A stretch of 64,000 nt of DNA, from the sequence record PP886229. One strand, written 5' to 3'. Made by a program: the position numbers and the translations under genes. Shown piece by piece: positions 40,479 to 56,929 of the stretch. The first letter of the stretch is position 1. Every line of letters starts with the position of its first letter. The stretch is from Escherichia phage vB_EcoM_E9. The notes below the pieces were generated by a model. It was not told where the DNA came from. It worked only from the letters and a program-made list of their open reading frames with translations, and did no database searches.

Positions 40479-42623
40479 ATGAACAAAGTACAGATTATTA
40501 AAAAGAATGGCTCACTTGAAGAACCTGATATCAAAAAAGTTTTAGCAGCAGTAACTAAGTCAGCTAACAGGGTTGGATATAAAGAACTCCCACCAGATGT
40601 TACCCAAGCTCTTGAGTCAGCATTTATGAGGATTCTGGTAAAGTCCACTAAGCAGAATAATTTGCTCATCTCGGTAAATGATATTCACAGCATCGTTGAA
40701 GGTGCTTTGGCAGAAGTTAATCACGAGATTTATGAGTCTTACTCAACATACAGAAATTACCGTAAAGAGGTTGCTCAAAATTGGGATGAGCTTTACCAAA
40801 AGACCAGAGACACACTCTTCTTAGGTGACCGTGAAAATGCTAACTTTGACAGTAGTTTAATTTCTACAAAAGGTTCAATTATTCGTGGTTATCTGACTAA
40901 AGAAATCTTTAAACAGTACCATTTAACACCAGAGGAACTCGAAGCCATTGAAAAAGGGTTTATCTACATACATGACTTAAGAGACCTAATTTTTGGTGGG
41001 ATTAACTGTTGCCTGTTTGACATTGGTAAAGTACTGAAAGGCGGCTTTGAAATGTCTGGCATCGAATACTGTGAACCAAAATCTGTACTGTCAGCCTTAC
41101 AAGTTATTGGTGATGTAGTTCTTTCAGCAACTGCACAGCAATTTGGTGGTTTTACTTTAGCAGAGATTGATAAGGTGCTTGTACCGTATGCTAAGAAGTC
41201 TCTACGCTATCATGCTGAGAAAGCAGCATCTTATGGTATTCCTAAAGAACATTACCATAACTATGTCATGGAGCAGCTACAGATTGAATTAACTCAAGGC
41301 TTCCAGTCACTAGAGATGAAACTAAATACTGTACCTTGCAGCCGTGGTGATTTTGCATTCACAACTTTAACATTTGGTTTACTTGACTCAGACATGTCTA
41401 ATGAAGACAACCGACTACAATACATGATTGCAAACACTATTCTTGATGTTCGCATGAATGGACAAGGTAAGAGTAAGAAGCCTGTTGTATTCCCTAAGCT
41501 GGTTTATATTCATGACCAGAAGAGACACGATGAGAATATCTGTCAAGGTCAACTGTACAGTAAAGCTATTGAGTGTTGCTCTAAAGCTATGTATCCAGAT
41601 TTCTTAAGTGTATCTGGTCATGGTGCTGTAGCAGAGGCTTTTGAGCGTTCTGGCAAGGTAATTTCACCGATGGGTTGCAGAGCTTTCTTATCCCCATATC
41701 TTAACGAGAATGGAGAAGAGTTCTACGTTGGTCGTGCTAACATTGGTGCTGTATCTTTGAACTTACCAATGATTTACCAGTATTCTAAAGAGAATGGCTT
41801 AGATTTCTGGAAAGAGCTTGATAAGTACCTAGAGATGATTCGCAGCTTCCACAAGAAACGCTACGAAATGATTGCTAATATGCCAGCAAGCTCTAACCCT
41901 CTTGCATTCACACAAGGTGGTCTGTACAAAGGGACTAAGAAACCTACTGACAAGGTTGGCTGGGATATTGTGAAGTCTTTCACAGCTTCTTTTGGGGTTA
42001 CTGCGCTTGATGAGTTATCTGTTCTTGCTGAGGGTAAACGACTTCATGAAGCTGGAAGCTATAGTTTTGCATACGATGTTCTGGCATACATTAACATGAA
42101 AACTGAAGAGTTTAAAAATGAAGATGGCTTCTTATATGCTGTCTATGGTACTCCAGCAGAATCACTTTGTGGAACTCAGCTAAAACAGTTCAGAGATATG
42201 TTTGGCGTTATTAAAGGCGTTTCTGACAAGGAATACTTTACAAACAGTTTCCACATGAATGTTGCAGCAGACATCTCACCATTTGAGAAGCAGGACTTAG
42301 AAGAGCCATTCTTCCATATCTGTAGAGGCGGTAGAATCCAGTATGTAAGGGTAGCTAACCCAGAAAACTTAACAGCACTTAAAAGTTGTATTACAAGAGG
42401 GATGTTGAAAGGTTTTTATCAGGGACTTAACTTTGACTTAGCAATCTGTGAACATTGTGGTAACAGACCAAAGGCTGATGTTGAAGAATGTGAGGTTTGC
42501 CATTCACATGATATCTCTGTGATTAACAGGGTGTGTGGGTATCTTGGATGGACTAAGATTAAAGGCGAATCCCGAATGAACGATGCAAAAATTGCTGAGA
42601 TTCGTGACAGAGTTTCTATGTAA
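40479..42623 (+). CDS. nrdD: anaerobic ribonucleoside-triphosphate reductase
   Basis: 714 aa; C-terminal zinc ribbon CEHCG...CEVCHS and glycyl-radical motif ..RVCGYLG.. Confidence 0.85.
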   Translation: MNKVQIIKKNGSLEEPDIKKVLAAVTKSANRVGYKELPPDVTQALESAFMRILVKSTKQNNLLISVNDIHSIVEGALAEVNHEIYESYSTYRNYRKEVAQNWDELYQKTRDTLFLGDRENANFDSSLISTKGSIIRGYLTKEIFKQYHLTPEELEAIEKGFIYIHDLRDLIFGGINCCLFDIGKVLKGGFEMSGIEYCEPKSVLSALQVIGDVVLSATAQQFGGFTLAEIDKVLVPYAKKSLRYHAEKAASYGIPKEHYHNYVMEQLQIELTQGFQSLEMKLNTVPCSRGDFAFTTLTFGLLDSDMSNEDNRLQYMIANTILDVRMNGQGKSKKPVVFPKLVYIHDQKRHDENICQGQLYSKAIECCSKAMYPDFLSVSGHGAVAEAFERSGKVISPMGCRAFLSPYLNENGEEFYVGRANIGAVSLNLPMIYQYSKENGLDFWKELDKYLEMIRSFHKKRYEMIANMPASSNPLAFTQGGLYKGTKKPTDKVGWDIVKSFTASFGVTALDELSVLAEGKRLHEAGSYSFAYDVLAYINMKTEEFKNEDGFLYAVYGTPAESLCGTQLKQFRDMFGVIKGVSDKEYFTNSFHMNVAADISPFEKQDLEEPFFHICRGGRIQYVRVANPENLTALKSCITRGMLKGFYQGLNFDLAICEHCGNRPKADVEECEVCHSHDISVINRVCGYLGWTKIKGESRMNDAKIAEIRDRVSM

Positions 42624-44805: not shown

Positions 44806-44817
44806 ACAGATACTATA

Positions 44818-44842
44818 AGGGAACTGTAAAGGTTCCCTTTTT
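44818..44842 (+). terminator. rho-independent terminator
   Basis: GGGAAC-tgtaaa-GGTTCCC followed by TTTTT. Confidence 0.6.
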
Positions 44843-44856
44843 ATTTTGGAGATAAC

Positions 44857-45372
44857 ATGTATCTGTCAAATCTGAAACGTTCGGCTACAATGTCAGTGCT
44901 AAGACTCAGCTTTGAGGAACGTCAAGAGTTCATTGACTCCCACCAATACGACCCTTCTAACTCCAATCACATGATTCTCTGGAATCGTGATAGTACTCGT
45001 GAAAGAGCACTATTCCTCTATTACCCACACTACACCATAGACAACCTGTATGAATGTTTTGTTGTGAAGAACACCATTACAGTGCTCAATAAACTTTGTA
45101 GATACACAGGTAACCAGTCCTTCACATTAGGTCACCACAAACCTGTTACAAAAGGTGGCGAACATCACTGCGCAAACTGGTTTATCCAGACTAAACTTGA
45201 TAACCAGAAGCAAGGCGATAGTCTTCTAAGTACTCCTAAGATGACCTATGAAGAGCAAGAGAGATATATCAAAAATAATATGCCAGATGTGCTTGACAAC
45301 AACTATACAGATTTGGCAATATCTCTCCTGTTGAAGTTCGAGACAGTTTATAGGGCAACTTACAATGGCTAA
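44857..45372 (+). CDS. putative HNH endonuclease
   Basis: ..LGHHKPVTKGGEHHCANWFIQTKLDNQKQG.. fits an HNH beta-beta-alpha core (His pair, GG, Asn). Confidence 0.4.
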   Translation: MYLSNLKRSATMSVLRLSFEERQEFIDSHQYDPSNSNHMILWNRDSTRERALFLYYPHYTIDNLYECFVVKNTITVLNKLCRYTGNQSFTLGHHKPVTKGGEHHCANWFIQTKLDNQKQGDSLLSTPKMTYEEQERYIKNNMPDVLDNNYTDLAISLLLKFETVYRATYNG

Positions 45373-45643
45373 AGAGAAGTGGGAGATTTTACCACTAGTC
45401 AGTGAGGGTGGTAATGGTTGTGAAATGTACATGATACGTGGTCATGTCCCAGAACCAATTGCACTTGAGATGGTGAACAATTTTACAGATGGCTCTTACA
45501 AAGACTTAGGAGAACCAACTGTCAAGCAACAATGGGTTAAACCTGTACCAGACAGCACAGGTAACTGTAGTGTACTTTATCACGTTGTAGACCCTGCAAA
45601 ATGCAAATCTGCAATGGCAGTAACAAACGTAACTTTTGATTGA
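45365..45643 (+). CDS. hypothetical protein
   Basis: 92 aa ORF. Confidence 0.3.
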   Translation: MAKEKWEILPLVSEGGNGCEMYMIRGHVPEPIALEMVNNFTDGSYKDLGEPTVKQQWVKPVPDSTGNCSVLYHVVDPAKCKSAMAVTNVTFD

Positions 45644-46536
45644 GAGAGAAAATTATGAAAACTATTATTGAAGCCGTTGTCACCGCACAAGAGAAATTCT
45701 TCCACACAGAAAAATTTAATATCATCCAATTTCCATCTGGAGAAATTGGTGGAAACTTCTCTGAAGACTTTGTTAAGTTTACTGAGCGTAATGCTGGTAA
45801 GATTGACAATGTTATATTGACTGTGCAGGGATATGATAAAGATACACTGTTTGCATTAGCTTTGGCTAAGGATGCCGTTGACAGTCTTGTTCCATACAAA
45901 TCAGCGATGAAAACCGTTGTTTTCGGGTTCTTACCAAATGCTCGATATGACCGACATATGTTCAAAGGTGATTCAGCAGCACTGAAAGCTTTTGCCAACC
46001 TCGTTAATGCAATGGGCTTTGATGCAGTGTGTGCTCTTGACCCTCACAGTAATGTGGCAGAAAACTTATTCAAGTGCTTTCAGAGCATGAAGCAAAAAGA
46101 TGTAGCAGCACACTTTGCAAGTGACCCACGCATTGATTTCTTGGTAGCCCCAGATGCAGGTGCAGCTAAGAAGACTGAAGAGACTGCTAAAGAGGTAGAT
46201 AAGCCATACATCACAATGTCTAAAGTACGTAACCTTAAGACTGGTGAAATTACTGGTATGCGAATCCTTGATGATGTTGATTTGACAGATAAAACCGTCA
46301 TGATTCTTGATGATATTTGCGATGGGGGCCGAACCTTCATAGAAGCAGCTAAACATCTTCGTGAAGCAGGTGCAAAACGTGTGGAACTCTATGTAACTCA
46401 TGGTATTTTCTCTAAAGGTGTTGAAAGCTTACTTGACAATGGTATTGACCATATCTACACTACAAACACTTTAGGTGAAGCTAAAGACCGTGGCTTAACA
46501 CATTATGGTCAGGTTACTGTAGCAACAATTGATTAA
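45640..46536 (+). CDS. ribose-phosphate pyrophosphokinase family protein (Prs-like; candidate ADP-ribose pyrophosphokinase)
   Basis: 298 aa with phosphoribosyl-binding loop ..VMILDDICDGGRTF..; immediately upstream of a NAMPT-like gene. Confidence 0.65.
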   Translation: MREKIMKTIIEAVVTAQEKFFHTEKFNIIQFPSGEIGGNFSEDFVKFTERNAGKIDNVILTVQGYDKDTLFALALAKDAVDSLVPYKSAMKTVVFGFLPNARYDRHMFKGDSAALKAFANLVNAMGFDAVCALDPHSNVAENLFKCFQSMKQKDVAAHFASDPRIDFLVAPDAGAAKKTEETAKEVDKPYITMSKVRNLKTGEITGMRILDDVDLTDKTVMILDDICDGGRTFIEAAKHLREAGAKRVELYVTHGIFSKGVESLLDNGIDHIYTTNTLGEAKDRGLTHYGQVTVATID

Positions 46537-46545
46537 AACTTTATA

Positions 46546-46568
46546 GGGGCTTGTAAGCCCCATTTTGA
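46546..46568 (+). terminator. hairpin terminator/attenuator
   Basis: GGGGCTT-gt-AAGCCCC followed by ATTTTG. Confidence 0.4.
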
Positions 46569-46581
46569 GAGAGATTAAAAG

Positions 46582-48363
46582 ATGACTAAATCACTTTATG
46601 CAGTACCAGCAGGTTTAAACGCAGATGCTTACAAATCTGGTCACATCTACCAGTATCCTAGCGCAACAGAGTACTTGATGTTCAACCTGACACCACGTAG
46701 TGACAAATGGTTTAACAGCCCCTTAGCAATTGATGGTGTAGTTGCTTTCGGTATTCAACGTTTTGTTAAAGATTACCTGATAGACCACTGGAACGCCACA
46801 TTCTTCGAACGTGACAAAAAAGAAGCAATTGACGAAATCTTAGAAGTCATGAACGGTGTTCTGGGTAAAGATGCTATTGGTCGAGAACATTGGGAAGCAC
46901 TCCACGACTTAGGTTATCTACCAGTCGAAGTCTACGCTGTAGAAGAAGGTACAGTTGTCCCTATGCGTGTGCCAATGATTGTCTTCCAGAACACTGTTTC
47001 AGGTTTCCATTGGGTAGCGGGGTATCTGGAAGATGCTTTCTCTGCTGAGATTTGGAAGGCTTGTACCATTGCAACTATTGCATTGCACTACAAACGTATC
47101 TGTAAGAAGTGGGCTGACCTTACTTGTGACAACGACTTGCATTTACCTTATCAGTGCCATGACTTTGCTATGCGTGGTATGTCTGGCTTTACTGATGACG
47201 CATTTAACGCTGTAGGCCACTTAACCAGCTTTAAAGGGACTGATAGCTTCCCTGCTGTGTATACAGCTAAACGCATCTATGGACAGTCCTACCCAATCTC
47301 TGATATTGGTAGTTCTGTACCAGCCACTGAACATTCTGTAATGTGTGCAAACATTGCTTGGGAAGGTGGTAACGAGTTGATTGAAGAAGAAAGACGCTTT
47401 AAAGGTGAGTTACAAACCTTCCGTCGTTTCTTAACAGAAACTTACCCAACTGGTATTGCAAGTGTTGTTTCAGATACTTATAACTTCTGGAGAACTGTAT
47501 CAGTCATATTGCCAGAACTCCGTAAAGAGATTATGGAACGTGATGGCAAACTGGTAATTCGTCCTGATTCTGGAGACCCTGTACATATTGTCACAGGATA
47601 CAAAGCAATCCATTTAGAGTGTGCTAAAAAGGCTTATTACGAACACCTAAGTAAGCTGGAAGCCAGCGACACAATGCTGAATGCTGTTCTGAACATGAAG
47701 CTTGAAAACATCAATTATGGTATTGCTGGATGGCTACTGTCAGAAGGTTACGAAATGGTTGTTGACAGAGAAGACTTTGAAGTTGCTGATACAGTGCTGT
47801 TGAAAAATGCTTATGTGGTTGGTTCTGCAAACGTTGTAACACGTCCTGTAGCGGAGATTGATGGAGCTATCAAGACACTGTATAACATCTTTGGAGGAAC
47901 TATCAACTCTAAAGGTTTTAAAGTACTGGATGAGCACATTGGCCTTATTTATGGTGACTCTATCACGTTGGAACGTGCAAACGAAATCCTAAAGCGTTTG
48001 TATGAAATGGGTTTTGCAAGCTCTAACGTAGTGTTTGGTGTAGGTTCTTACACTTACCAGTACATGACTCGTGACACCTTTGCATTTGCTGTCAAAGCAA
48101 CTCTTGCAAGCATTGGTGGTAAAGAGATTATGCTCGCAAAAGACCCTAAAACAGATAGTGGTGTTAAGAAGTCTGCTTTTGGTGGTGTAGCACCTATGTG
48201 GGATGGTGAAAATCTGAAAGCTGTAGATGGCTATGGGTTCCAGAGCTTTGCAGATGCACTTGAACACCCAGCTTGTGCTTTACGCCTAGTCTTTAGTGAC
48301 TCTGAGCAGTTCGGCTACACAACTCTTGGTGATATTCGAAATAATATTGACAAGCAGCTTTAA
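46582..48363 (+). CDS. nicotinamide phosphoribosyltransferase family protein (NAMPT-like)
   Basis: 593 aa; N-terminal ..DAYKSGHIYQYP.. resembles the NAMPT DSYK.THY.QYP motif (recollection). Confidence 0.75.
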   Translation: MTKSLYAVPAGLNADAYKSGHIYQYPSATEYLMFNLTPRSDKWFNSPLAIDGVVAFGIQRFVKDYLIDHWNATFFERDKKEAIDEILEVMNGVLGKDAIGREHWEALHDLGYLPVEVYAVEEGTVVPMRVPMIVFQNTVSGFHWVAGYLEDAFSAEIWKACTIATIALHYKRICKKWADLTCDNDLHLPYQCHDFAMRGMSGFTDDAFNAVGHLTSFKGTDSFPAVYTAKRIYGQSYPISDIGSSVPATEHSVMCANIAWEGGNELIEEERRFKGELQTFRRFLTETYPTGIASVVSDTYNFWRTVSVILPELRKEIMERDGKLVIRPDSGDPVHIVTGYKAIHLECAKKAYYEHLSKLEASDTMLNAVLNMKLENINYGIAGWLLSEGYEMVVDREDFEVADTVLLKNAYVVGSANVVTRPVAEIDGAIKTLYNIFGGTINSKGFKVLDEHIGLIYGDSITLERANEILKRLYEMGFASSNVVFGVGSYTYQYMTRDTFAFAVKATLASIGGKEIMLAKDPKTDSGVKKSAFGGVAPMWDGENLKAVDGYGFQSFADALEHPACALRLVFSDSEQFGYTTLGDIRNNIDKQL

Positions 48364-48378
48364 AAGTATATGATAAGA

Positions 48379-48399
48379 GGCTCCTACGGGAGCCTTTTT
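48379..48399 (+). terminator. rho-independent terminator
   Basis: GGCTCC-tac-GGGAGCC followed by TTTTT. Confidence 0.6.
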
Positions 48400-56143: not shown

Positions 56144-56929
56144 ATGGGTATTGTAAAAATCATCAATGGGGATATCTTCTCAGCATTTGATAAAGGTAAG
56201 TTTGATATTATTGGTCACGGTTGCAACTGTATGAACTTAATGGGTGCAGGTATCGCTGACAAGATTTCTAAACTTTACCCAAAAGCATATGAGACTGATA
56301 CAGAAGTTTATCTGTATGCAGGTGGTATAGGTCACAAACCCTGTGAAAATTTACTAGGTAATTTCTCTGTAGCACGTTTAAAACAAGGTCGTATAGCTAA
56401 TCTTTACACTCAGCTTAAGACTGGTAAAGATGCCCGATACAGTGCTTTAGAGTCATCTTTGAAACAGCTTAACAGATACTGTGAAGTCAATCAGTTGAAG
56501 AAAGTCGGGTTACCTATGATTGGTGCAGGTATCGGTGGGCTAGACCCTCAAGCCATCACAGTTATCATTAATCAGGTGATGAAGAGTGTAGATGTTTATC
56601 TGTATGTCTACGAAGGAGAGATGTACCACAAGTTACGCTCAGGTTGGAAGAACTACTGTGAGCCAGAATACTTTGCAGGTGTAGTAACGTTCACAGATGA
56701 TGCAGTTACCCTCTTCAGACGAAGAAAAGGTAAGATACATCAAAGTAACCCTCCGGTTGAGAAGATGTCTCTAAGTAACGCTCTAGTTACCCACATGTCG
56801 AAGGGCAATCACAGGATAGCCGTAACATTTGGCAGTGATGCAGATACATATATCTATGCAAGAACTGATGAGGATATCGAGGAAATTTTCTCATCATCAG
56901 AAGTTACCTTCTTAGACGCAAAGAGCTAA
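56144..56929 (+). CDS. macro-domain protein (ADP-ribose-binding/processing)
   Basis: ..INGDIFSAFDKGKFDIIGHGCNCMNLMGAGIADKI.. and ..KVGLPMIGAGIGGLD.. match the two glycine-rich macro-domain signatures (recollection). Confidence 0.5.
   Translation: MGIVKIINGDIFSAFDKGKFDIIGHGCNCMNLMGAGIADKISKLYPKAYETDTEVYLYAGGIGHKPCENLLGNFSVARLKQGRIANLYTQLKTGKDARYSALESSLKQLNRYCEVNQLKKVGLPMIGAGIGGLDPQAITVIINQVMKSVDVYLYVYEGEMYHKLRSGWKNYCEPEYFAGVVTFTDDAVTLFRRRKGKIHQSNPPVEKMSLSNALVTHMSKGNHRIAVTFGSDADTYIYARTDEDIEEIFSSSEVTFLDAKS

Follow-up and report, generated by a model that had tools for sequence, protein, structure and literature searches.

The stretch of DNA analysed here, referred to as the window (64,000 nucleotides of Escherichia phage vB_EcoM_E9, record PP886229), comes from a Felixounavirus. 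It holds two adjacent genes on the + strand, as an earlier note made from the sequence alone had claimed. The first, adps (45655..46536, +; ATG start, 882 nt, 293 aa), codes for a Prs-family protein, which we assign as the ADP-ribose pyrophosphokinase of the NARP1 pathway, and the second, namat (46582..48363, +; 593 aa), codes for a NAMPT-family protein, assigned as the NARP1 nicotinamide ADP-ribose transferase. A TTG at position 45640 is only the mechanical start of the first open reading frame (45640..46536, 298 aa); the ATG at 45655 is preceded by GAGAGAGA and the same start is annotated in Bas63, AYO145A and FelixO1. The namat gene begins 45 nt downstream of adps on the same strand, within the vicinity expected of a NARP1 pair. 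The two genes are kept together in 251 phage records, are conserved in all Felixounavirus records, and lie in a neighbourhood of nucleotide-metabolism genes (NrdAB, NrdDG, thymidylate synthase and DHFR). The characterised NARP1 system of Bas63 (JohannRWettstein; bas63_0079/0080) is from the same genus and agrees with the window in gene order, in neighbouring genes and in the lengths of the two proteins (293 and 593 aa), with 93.7% nucleotide identity over the pair. The selectivity-clamp residues and an inserted subdomain of Namat are common to both phages, and the differences amount to 10 substitutions in Adps and 14 in Namat, none at catalytic or clamp positions, and to one additional small ORF downstream in Bas63 (bas63_0081), unlike the window.

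Upstream of the pair, the terminator scan found a terminator-like hairpin (44817..44839, +; 9-bp stem followed by a T-run), and the equivalent site in AYO145A is annotated as a terminator. This hairpin is the probable 5' boundary of a transcription unit comprising two small ORFs together with adps and namat. Each of the two genes had been credited with a terminator of its own. For namat this stands: an intrinsic terminator follows the gene (48375..48398, +; 10-bp stem with 5 GC pairs and a T-run, U5) and is strong (-17.2 kcal/mol, z -3.1). For adps it is less clear. The spacer of 45 nt contains a GC hairpin (GGGGCU/AGCCCC + AUUUU; 46546..46566, +), the 6-bp stem of which (46546..46561; -12.6 kcal/mol, z -2.9) is followed by only four U, and it was not called by the scan, failing the T-tail rule. 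In the AYO145A record, however, it was marked by the depositors as a terminator, and in FelixO1 an HNH endonuclease gene is found at this position instead. It may be a weak or partial terminator or an RNA-stability element. A division of adps and namat into two independent units at this hairpin was considered and not adopted: with the weak U-tract the evidence is equivocal, and published work treats the two Bas63 genes as one operon (bioRxiv 10.1101/2024.02.11.579819).

Adps is identical to Bas63 gp79 at 283 of 293 positions (97%), without gaps. The protein matches the Pribosyltran (PF00156) and Pribosyl_synth (PF14572) families (E 2.6e-12 and 5e-10, respectively), and the PRPP-binding loop quoted for it previously, VMILDDICDGGRTF, is found at aa 215-228. 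Only the broad subfamily model TIGR01251 was passed (E 5.5e-40); Adps falls below the cut-off of every NCBIfam Prs equivalog, the best being NF002095 with 112.5 bits versus the 296 required, which sets it apart from the cellular Prs enzymes. These scores, and its identity to the Bas63 protein, a seed of the published clade, place it within the Adps clade. The catalytic lysine, K190, aligns with K192 of the Gary/Athena Adps, the K192A mutant of which served as an inactive control (bioRxiv 10.64898/2026.01.28.702374).

Namat is likewise collinear with its Bas63 counterpart, gp80 (579 of 593 residues identical, 98%, gap-free). It matches NAPRTase (E 2.1e-34) and NF006629 (E 3.1e-140), and the NAMPT-like motif DAYKSGHIYQYP is present at aa 15-26, as had been noted. 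The core residues D15, Y17, F195, R198, D221, H251 and R327 are invariant in the alignment of homologues, so that the catalytic residues looked for in a NARP1 pair (K190 in Adps; H251, R327, D221 and F195 in Namat) are all in place. H251 is the counterpart of H243 of Gary Namat, which, with K192 of Adps, was mutated to inactivate the Gary system (bioRxiv 10.64898/2026.01.28.702374). Moreover, Namat has the helix motif of the selectivity clamp, GSYTYQYMTRD (G488 to D498; 48043..48075, +), as described for Bas63 Namat, with the aromatic residues Y490 and Y494; the phi3 position is Met, versus the usual Asn or Val, as it is in Bas63. The clamp loop (SCL) is expected to have Arg at position 3, or else Lys or Tyr with the stacking residue next to it, at position 4. 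In the window it reads S40-D41-K42-W43, identical to Bas63, the loop of which is cited as a case of Lys followed by stacking at the fourth residue (PMC12774641), and it would likewise provide a residue for adenine stacking. The structure prediction called for earlier gave an AF2 model with pLDDT 92, for which the crystal structures of Namat are the best match, at the level of sequence (9w5w/9w5x, E 4e-128) and of fold (target TM 0.94 against 9w5x, ahead of HdNadV and human NAMPT). The crystallised enzyme, SpbetaL1 Namat (PMC12774641), is only about 38% identical to the window protein and differs from it in the clamp loop (Arg40 instead of Lys42-Trp43, the window loop being 4 residues longer) and in lacking both the 88-aa insertion described below and a smaller one at about aa 258-272. 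However, the two share the fold, the catalytic core and the SCH signature, and for SpbetaL1 Namat the formation of NAD+ from ADPR-PP and nicotinamide is biochemically proven (PMC12774641).

The earlier note had seen no NMN adenylyltransferase or Nudix gene, and had proposed a search of the rest of the genome. Neither family (PF01467, PF00293) was matched in 81 window ORFs, a set apart from about 11 large, well-annotated ones (polymerase, RNR, tail proteins) that the scan for fused domains passed over, nor in the 25 Bas63 ORFs that fall outside the window, and the Bas63 annotation contains no NMNAT, Nudix or RyR family. The RyR/R12 glycosidase domain (PF02026) that would denote NARP1 + RyDEP is also absent from the scanned ORFs. 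In the ten ORFs flanking the pair, Macro, RyR, Nudix and NMNAT domains are all missing, and the matches are limited to DUFs and a faint HNH-like one. NARP2 (Nampt + Nmnat/Nudix; NadV/NatV in Vibrio phage KVP40) likewise restores NAD+ with a NAMPT-family phage enzyme; however, it starts at PRPP and requires an NMN adenylyltransferase, often fused to Nudix, of which none was found here, and, in contrast to NARP2, the enzyme of the window bears the Namat clamp.

Because of the near-identity to the Bas63 pair, the catalytic and clamp residues, the fold of Namat and the lack of NMNAT and Nudix domains in the scanned ORFs, the NARP1 reading (Adps plus Namat) put forward earlier is supported, and we are highly confident that the locus is the NARP1 counter-defence module of a Felixounavirus. 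Judging from their sequences, Adps and Namat of the window would rebuild NAD+ as the characterised homologs do. A host defence NADase, of the SIR2, TIR or SEFIR type, would split NAD+ into ADP-ribose and nicotinamide; Adps would then use ATP to pyrophosphorylate ADP-ribose to ADPR-PP, and Namat would combine ADPR-PP with nicotinamide to yield NAD+ directly, bypassing NMN adenylyltransferase. NARP1 was discovered through the deletion of genes 79-80 of Bas63, the mutant showing a roughly 20-fold reduction in plaques on hosts with SIR2-HerA, in which NAD+ drops further (bioRxiv 10.1101/2024.02.11.579819). The in vitro chemistry comes from the SpbetaL1 homologs, of about 38% identity, because the Bas63 enzymes "did not purify well" (bioRxiv 10.1101/2024.02.11.579819); NARP1-type enzymology has been shown for the SpbetaL1, Gary and DyoEdafos homologs.

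The labels given in Pfam, NCBIfam and GenBank point to a different route, canonical salvage, in which the Prs-like protein makes PRPP from ribose-5-phosphate, the NAMPT-like protein makes NMN and the NadR/PncC route of the host completes the synthesis of NAD+; the databases still speak of a "ribose-phosphate pyrophosphokinase" and a "nicotinate/nicotinamide phosphoribosyltransferase". Since Namat homologs do convert PRPP and nicotinamide into NMN in vitro, about half as fast as human Nampt (PMC12774641), some flux through canonical salvage is possible. However, Bas63 overcame SIR2-HerA, and the effect of its NARP1 genes persisted, in a host lacking both pncC and nadR; SpbetaL1 Adps formed ADPR-PP from ADPR and ATP, yet gave no product in a Prs-type control reaction; and Namat favours ADPR-PP over PRPP (bioRxiv 10.1101/2024.02.11.579819). 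The adenine clamp of the window Namat and the failure of its Adps to reach any Prs equivalog cut-off also argue against this route, which is largely refuted for Bas63 and which we consider very unlikely to account for the locus. A housekeeping role, in which the pair would only boost NAD+ for the metabolism of the phage irrespective of any active defence, is suggested by its place among nucleotide-metabolism genes and its presence throughout the Felixounavirus records but is extremely improbable. ADPR-PP was detected only with wild-type Bas63 and a defence system together, and no loss of plating on system-free hosts was reported for the Bas63 deletion (bioRxiv 10.1101/2024.02.11.579819). NARP1 also requires free ADP-ribose, of which there is little unless an NADase is active, and the DNA of the phage encodes a ligase of the ATP-dependent type (PF01068), which leaves no evident particular demand for NAD+. 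The NARP1 module is itself already known, having been published in 2024 from the same phage genus with essentially the same proteins; the discovery value is small, and the use of the present assignment is to validate the reading of a recently described counter-defence pathway from raw sequence.

A modest lead remains in a Macro-domain protein of 261 aa (56144..56929, +; PF01661, 30.4 bits versus a cut-off of 22), encoded by the sole Macro gene found, 7.8 kb and about 15 genes downstream of the NARP1 pair. It consists of a Macro domain (aa 1-157) and a C-terminal extension of about 105 aa, and is assigned to phrog_335, "phosphatase". Adpp is the Macro phosphatase of an extended pathway, NARP1-AP (bioRxiv 10.64898/2026.01.28.702374), found in Vibrio phages Gary/Athena as Adps-Adpp-Namat; Adps and Namat of these phages are homologous to those of the window, which also encodes this homolog of Adpp (27% identity and E 2e-13 to Gary Adpp; 29% and E 3e-21 to PAK_P1 Adpp), with H25 as the counterpart of H24, the mutated His of Gary Adpp. 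However, the protein is 35% identical to T4-like Tk.4 and groups with T4 Tk.4/AdfM, an anti-DarTG2 factor, and not with Gary Adpp, from which it also differs in its extension. It is a candidate for an Adpp-like accessory or an AdfM-like anti-DarT2 factor. The published criterion for NARP1-AP places the gene of the Macro phosphatase no more than two genes away from the pair, and we did not classify the locus as NARP1-AP: the gene lies beyond that limit and outside the NARP1 operon, and its nearest characterised relative, Tk.4/AdfM, has another role. Felixounavirus is also absent from Table S1 of the NARP1-AP paper (bioRxiv 10.64898/2026.01.28.702374), although the published survey, which scanned only two genes on either side of NARP1, would have missed a "split" arrangement. 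It is conceivable, if rather unlikely, that Felixounaviruses, and Ounavirinae generally, run such a split NARP1-AP, in which the Macro protein would dephosphorylate ADPR-1''-phosphate to ADP-ribose, feeding Adps and Namat; if so, these phages would be resistant to aRES. The protein may serve NARP1, as Adpp does, DarT2 evasion, as AdfM does, or both.

The other modest lead is an undescribed insertion in the Namat of Ounavirinae. Namat, at 593 aa, had been thought longer than a typical NAMPT and suspected of carrying an extra domain. Both points were correct: SpbetaL1 Namat has about 490 aa, and the window protein contains an inserted alpha/beta subdomain of about 88 aa (aa 340-427; 47599..47862, +), confidently folded in the AF2 model and located at a variable site. 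The subdomain is present in Bas63 Namat and missing from SpbetaL1 Namat, the bacterial homologs and human NAMPT; it matched no known fold and is not discussed in the NARP1 papers compared. Possibly, it could act as a lineage-specific regulatory or interaction module. A homolog of 843 aa, P0064, and phrog_12872 raised the separate prospect of an Adps-Namat fusion, which was rejected: P0064 is a Namat with an intein-like element of about 320 aa, which splits the protein inside the RPDSG motif, between RPD and SG.

Two ORFs lie side by side on the plus strand in the ORF listing of the window, and their families are unambiguous: the Prs-like protein matches Pribosyltran and Pribosyl_synth, as well as the broad model TIGR01251 (137 bits against a cut-off of 113), and the NAMPT-like protein matches NAPRTase, NAMPT_N and NF006629 (468 bits against 405). 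These are the families that the earlier note had assigned, and both peptide motifs that it quoted are found in the encoded proteins. The mechanical start of the first ORF, adps, is a TTG at 45640; the ATG at 45655, directly preceded by GAGAGAGA and annotated as the start in three related phages, gives a protein of 293 aa. The second ORF, namat (46582..48363, plus strand), encodes 593 aa. The Prs-like protein misses every Prs equivalog cut-off by a wide margin (for example, 112.5 against 296 bits), and thus belongs to a divergent subfamily and is not an ordinary Prs. By megablast, the segment is assigned to the genus Felixounavirus and the pair is carried by 251 phage records at 80-97% nucleotide identity, under the labels 'ribose-phosphate pyrophosphokinase' and 'nicotinamide/nicotinate phosphoribosyltransferase'. 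Among them is Escherichia phage JohannRWettstein (Bas63, MZ501086.1; bas63_0079 and bas63_0080), which matches along all 2724 bases with 93.7% nucleotide identity.

We are highly confident that the pair works by the published NARP1 mechanism, in which Adps and Namat rebuild NAD+ from ADP-ribose (ADPR) and nicotinamide; as NARP1, the pair is already known. The earlier note had favoured this reading, which is supported by the near identity to the Bas63 proteins, the clamp motif and the catalytic residues. In direct, gapless BLASTP alignments, Bas63 gp79 is identical to the window Adps at 283/293 positions (97%), and gp80 to the window Namat at 579/593 (98%). NARP1 was discovered via deletion of the Bas63 'operon 79-80' (Osterman et al., bioRxiv 10.1101/2024.02.11.579819). 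On SIR2-HerA cells the plaque count of the mutant is lower by about 20-fold, with a further drop in NAD+, and ADPR-pyrophosphate (ADPR-PP) is found solely when wild-type phage infects defence-positive cells. Moreover, rescue is still seen when the host lacks both pncC and nadR, so that a path via NMN and host enzymes is ruled out. As the Bas63 protein 'did not purify well', the reactions were worked out on SpbetaL1 homologs: Adps converts ADPR and ATP to ADPR-PP, and Namat, which uses ADPR-PP in preference to PRPP, forms NAD+ directly (10.1101/2024.02.11.579819).

Namat is defined by a Nampt-like catalytic core together with an adenine 'selectivity clamp' (2026 structural paper, PMC12774641). 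The window protein carries the clamp helix motif, G488-S-Y-T-Y-Q-Y-M-T-R-D498, and its clamp loop, S40-D41-K42-W43, is the same as that of Bas63, the cited case of a Lys followed by the stacking residue (PMC12774641). An alignment of 26 sequences shows no variation at core residues D15, Y17, F195, R198, D221, H251 and R327. Compared with the enzymes of Vibrio phages Gary and Athena, Adps K190 aligns with K192 and Namat H251 with H243, the residues mutated to inactivate the Gary/Athena operon. Structure prediction, which the earlier note had proposed, points the same way: the AlphaFold2 model of Namat (pLDDT 92.1, pTM 0.90) is best matched by the SpbetaL1 Namat crystals 9w5x/9w5w (target TM 0.94), with Haemophilus NadV and human NAMPT ranking behind. 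The absence of a visible NMNAT or Nudix gene also held: profiles for CTP_transf_like, NUDIX and RyR have no match in 81 window ORFs, a set outside which fall about 11 large ORFs with good annotation (polymerase, primase-helicase, RNR subunits, tail proteins), nor in 25 ORFs from about 23 kb of the Bas63 genome outside the window, and the Bas63 annotation lists none of the three. With the clamp, the catalytic residues and no NMNAT found, the locus shows those features of NARP1 that are accessible to in silico tests, and lacks the defining feature of NARP2 (Nampt with Nmnat/Nudix). Canonical salvage, through PRPP and an NMN adenylyltransferase, is very improbable, as both the published Bas63 experiments and the clamp motif speak against it; on the same evidence, so is a housekeeping boost of NAD+.

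Two leads remain, one in the orphan segment inserted into Namat and the other in what an unlinked Macro protein does. The NAMPT-like protein had been described as longer than usual, and in its alignment to SpbetaL1 Namat the query indeed leaps from 350 to 428 where the target advances by a single residue, from 334 to 335. The multiple alignment has two variable sites, a small one at about aa 258-272 and the main one, flanked by the invariant RPDSGDP strand and the 'IFGGT' helix. There, the 495-aa bacterial forms and SpbetaL1 Namat have no extra residues, whereas Athena Namat has about 40 aa, Ounavirinae Namat 75-100 aa and two metagenomic proteins an unrelated segment of ~85 aa. In P0064, an 843-aa metagenomic homolog, ~320 aa split the catalytic RPD|SG motif; with a Cys at its start and GN|SG at its end, this segment resembles an active-site intein.

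A Pfam sweep found one Macro-domain protein, of 261 aa (56144..56929, plus strand), which scores 30.4 bits where the cut-off is 22. It is orthologous to bas63_0095, a 'putative phosphatase', and has a C-terminal extension of about 105 aa. The gene is relevant here because aRES, a RES-domain defence system, yields ADPR-1''-phosphate, which NARP1 cannot use, and because 15% of NARP1 phages carry in the operon a Macro phosphatase, Adpp, that restores ADPR (NARP1-AP; Osterman et al. 2026, bioRxiv 10.64898/2026.01.28.702374). That survey covered two genes on each side of NARP1, with no Felixounavirus in its table, and would have missed a Macro gene lying 7.8 kb away. The window protein aligns across the whole of Adpp; it is 27% identical to that of Gary (E 2e-13) and 29-36% identical to other operon Adpps, which themselves share only 27-38% with the Gary reference. 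His25 is kept, corresponding to Gary His24, and H24A is the inactive control for Gary Adpp (10.64898/2026.01.28.702374). In a neighbour-joining tree the Ounavirinae Macro proteins fall inside the operon-Adpp spread and cluster with T4 Tk.4 (35% identity), which is AdfM, an anti-DarTG2 factor (2025 preprint, 10.1101/2025.11.20.689424). The order NARP1, rIIA/B, PNK, spanins, Macro gene is also kept in Erwinia Kolesnikvirus, where Gln replaces the His. Given this clustering and substitution, the Macro gene is a lead outside the established module, and a 'split NARP1-AP' that includes it seems to us rather unlikely.

Of the terminators that the earlier note had given to each gene of the pair, the one 3' of namat stands, as a strong terminator at 48375..48398. 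The one between the genes is weak: the intergenic GC hairpin (46546..46566; -12.6 kcal/mol, z -2.9) has 6 bp and only four U and was not called by the terminator scan; the depositors of AYO145A annotated it as a terminator. The spacer (46537..46581) is just 45 nt, whereas FelixO1 has an HNH homing endonuclease gene at the same position (ORF128, L006:2406-2897), as do BPS15Q2, ekra, LinBro, ECML-1 and TH10 between adps and namat. Upstream, a terminator at 44817..44839 is the apparent 5' limit of the transcription unit, which seems to take in two small, conserved plus-strand ORFs, 44857..45372 (171 aa, phrog_3500, with a weak HNH-like signal) and 45365..45643 (92 aa, phrog_4726); lying between that terminator and adps, both are probably co-transcribed with NARP1. 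A near-consensus sigma-70-like promoter on the plus strand (TTGACA-16-TATGAT, 48347..48374; 11/12 matches) lies across the final codons of namat, immediately ahead of the terminator hairpin, at a site that carries a promoter annotation in AYO145A, and would serve the genes downstream.

This Felixounavirus segment is also matched by two 'Campylobacter' records and by GU169904.1, 'Staphylococcus phage SA1' (147 kb; 116990-119713, 94% identity), all of which look chimeric or contaminated. The annotation of Bas63 NrdD (L002:1-2786) joins two pieces around a homing endonuclease gene; at that position the window has a single unbroken 714-aa ORF (40479..42623), so that this phage appears to be without the intervening element. 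In the chromosome of Klebsiella michiganensis (L010:3211-6491), an Adps-like gene (289 aa; 48% identity to the window Adps over 188 aligned residues) precedes a Namat-like gene (496 aa) with an aromatic clamp helix motif, in a core-genome context, making the pair a candidate chromosomal NARP1. The pair and an NrtR-type regulator (Nudix plus WHD_NrtR) are divergently oriented; since NrtR is an ADP-ribose-responsive repressor of NAD salvage, this pair may be under ADP-ribose-responsive control.
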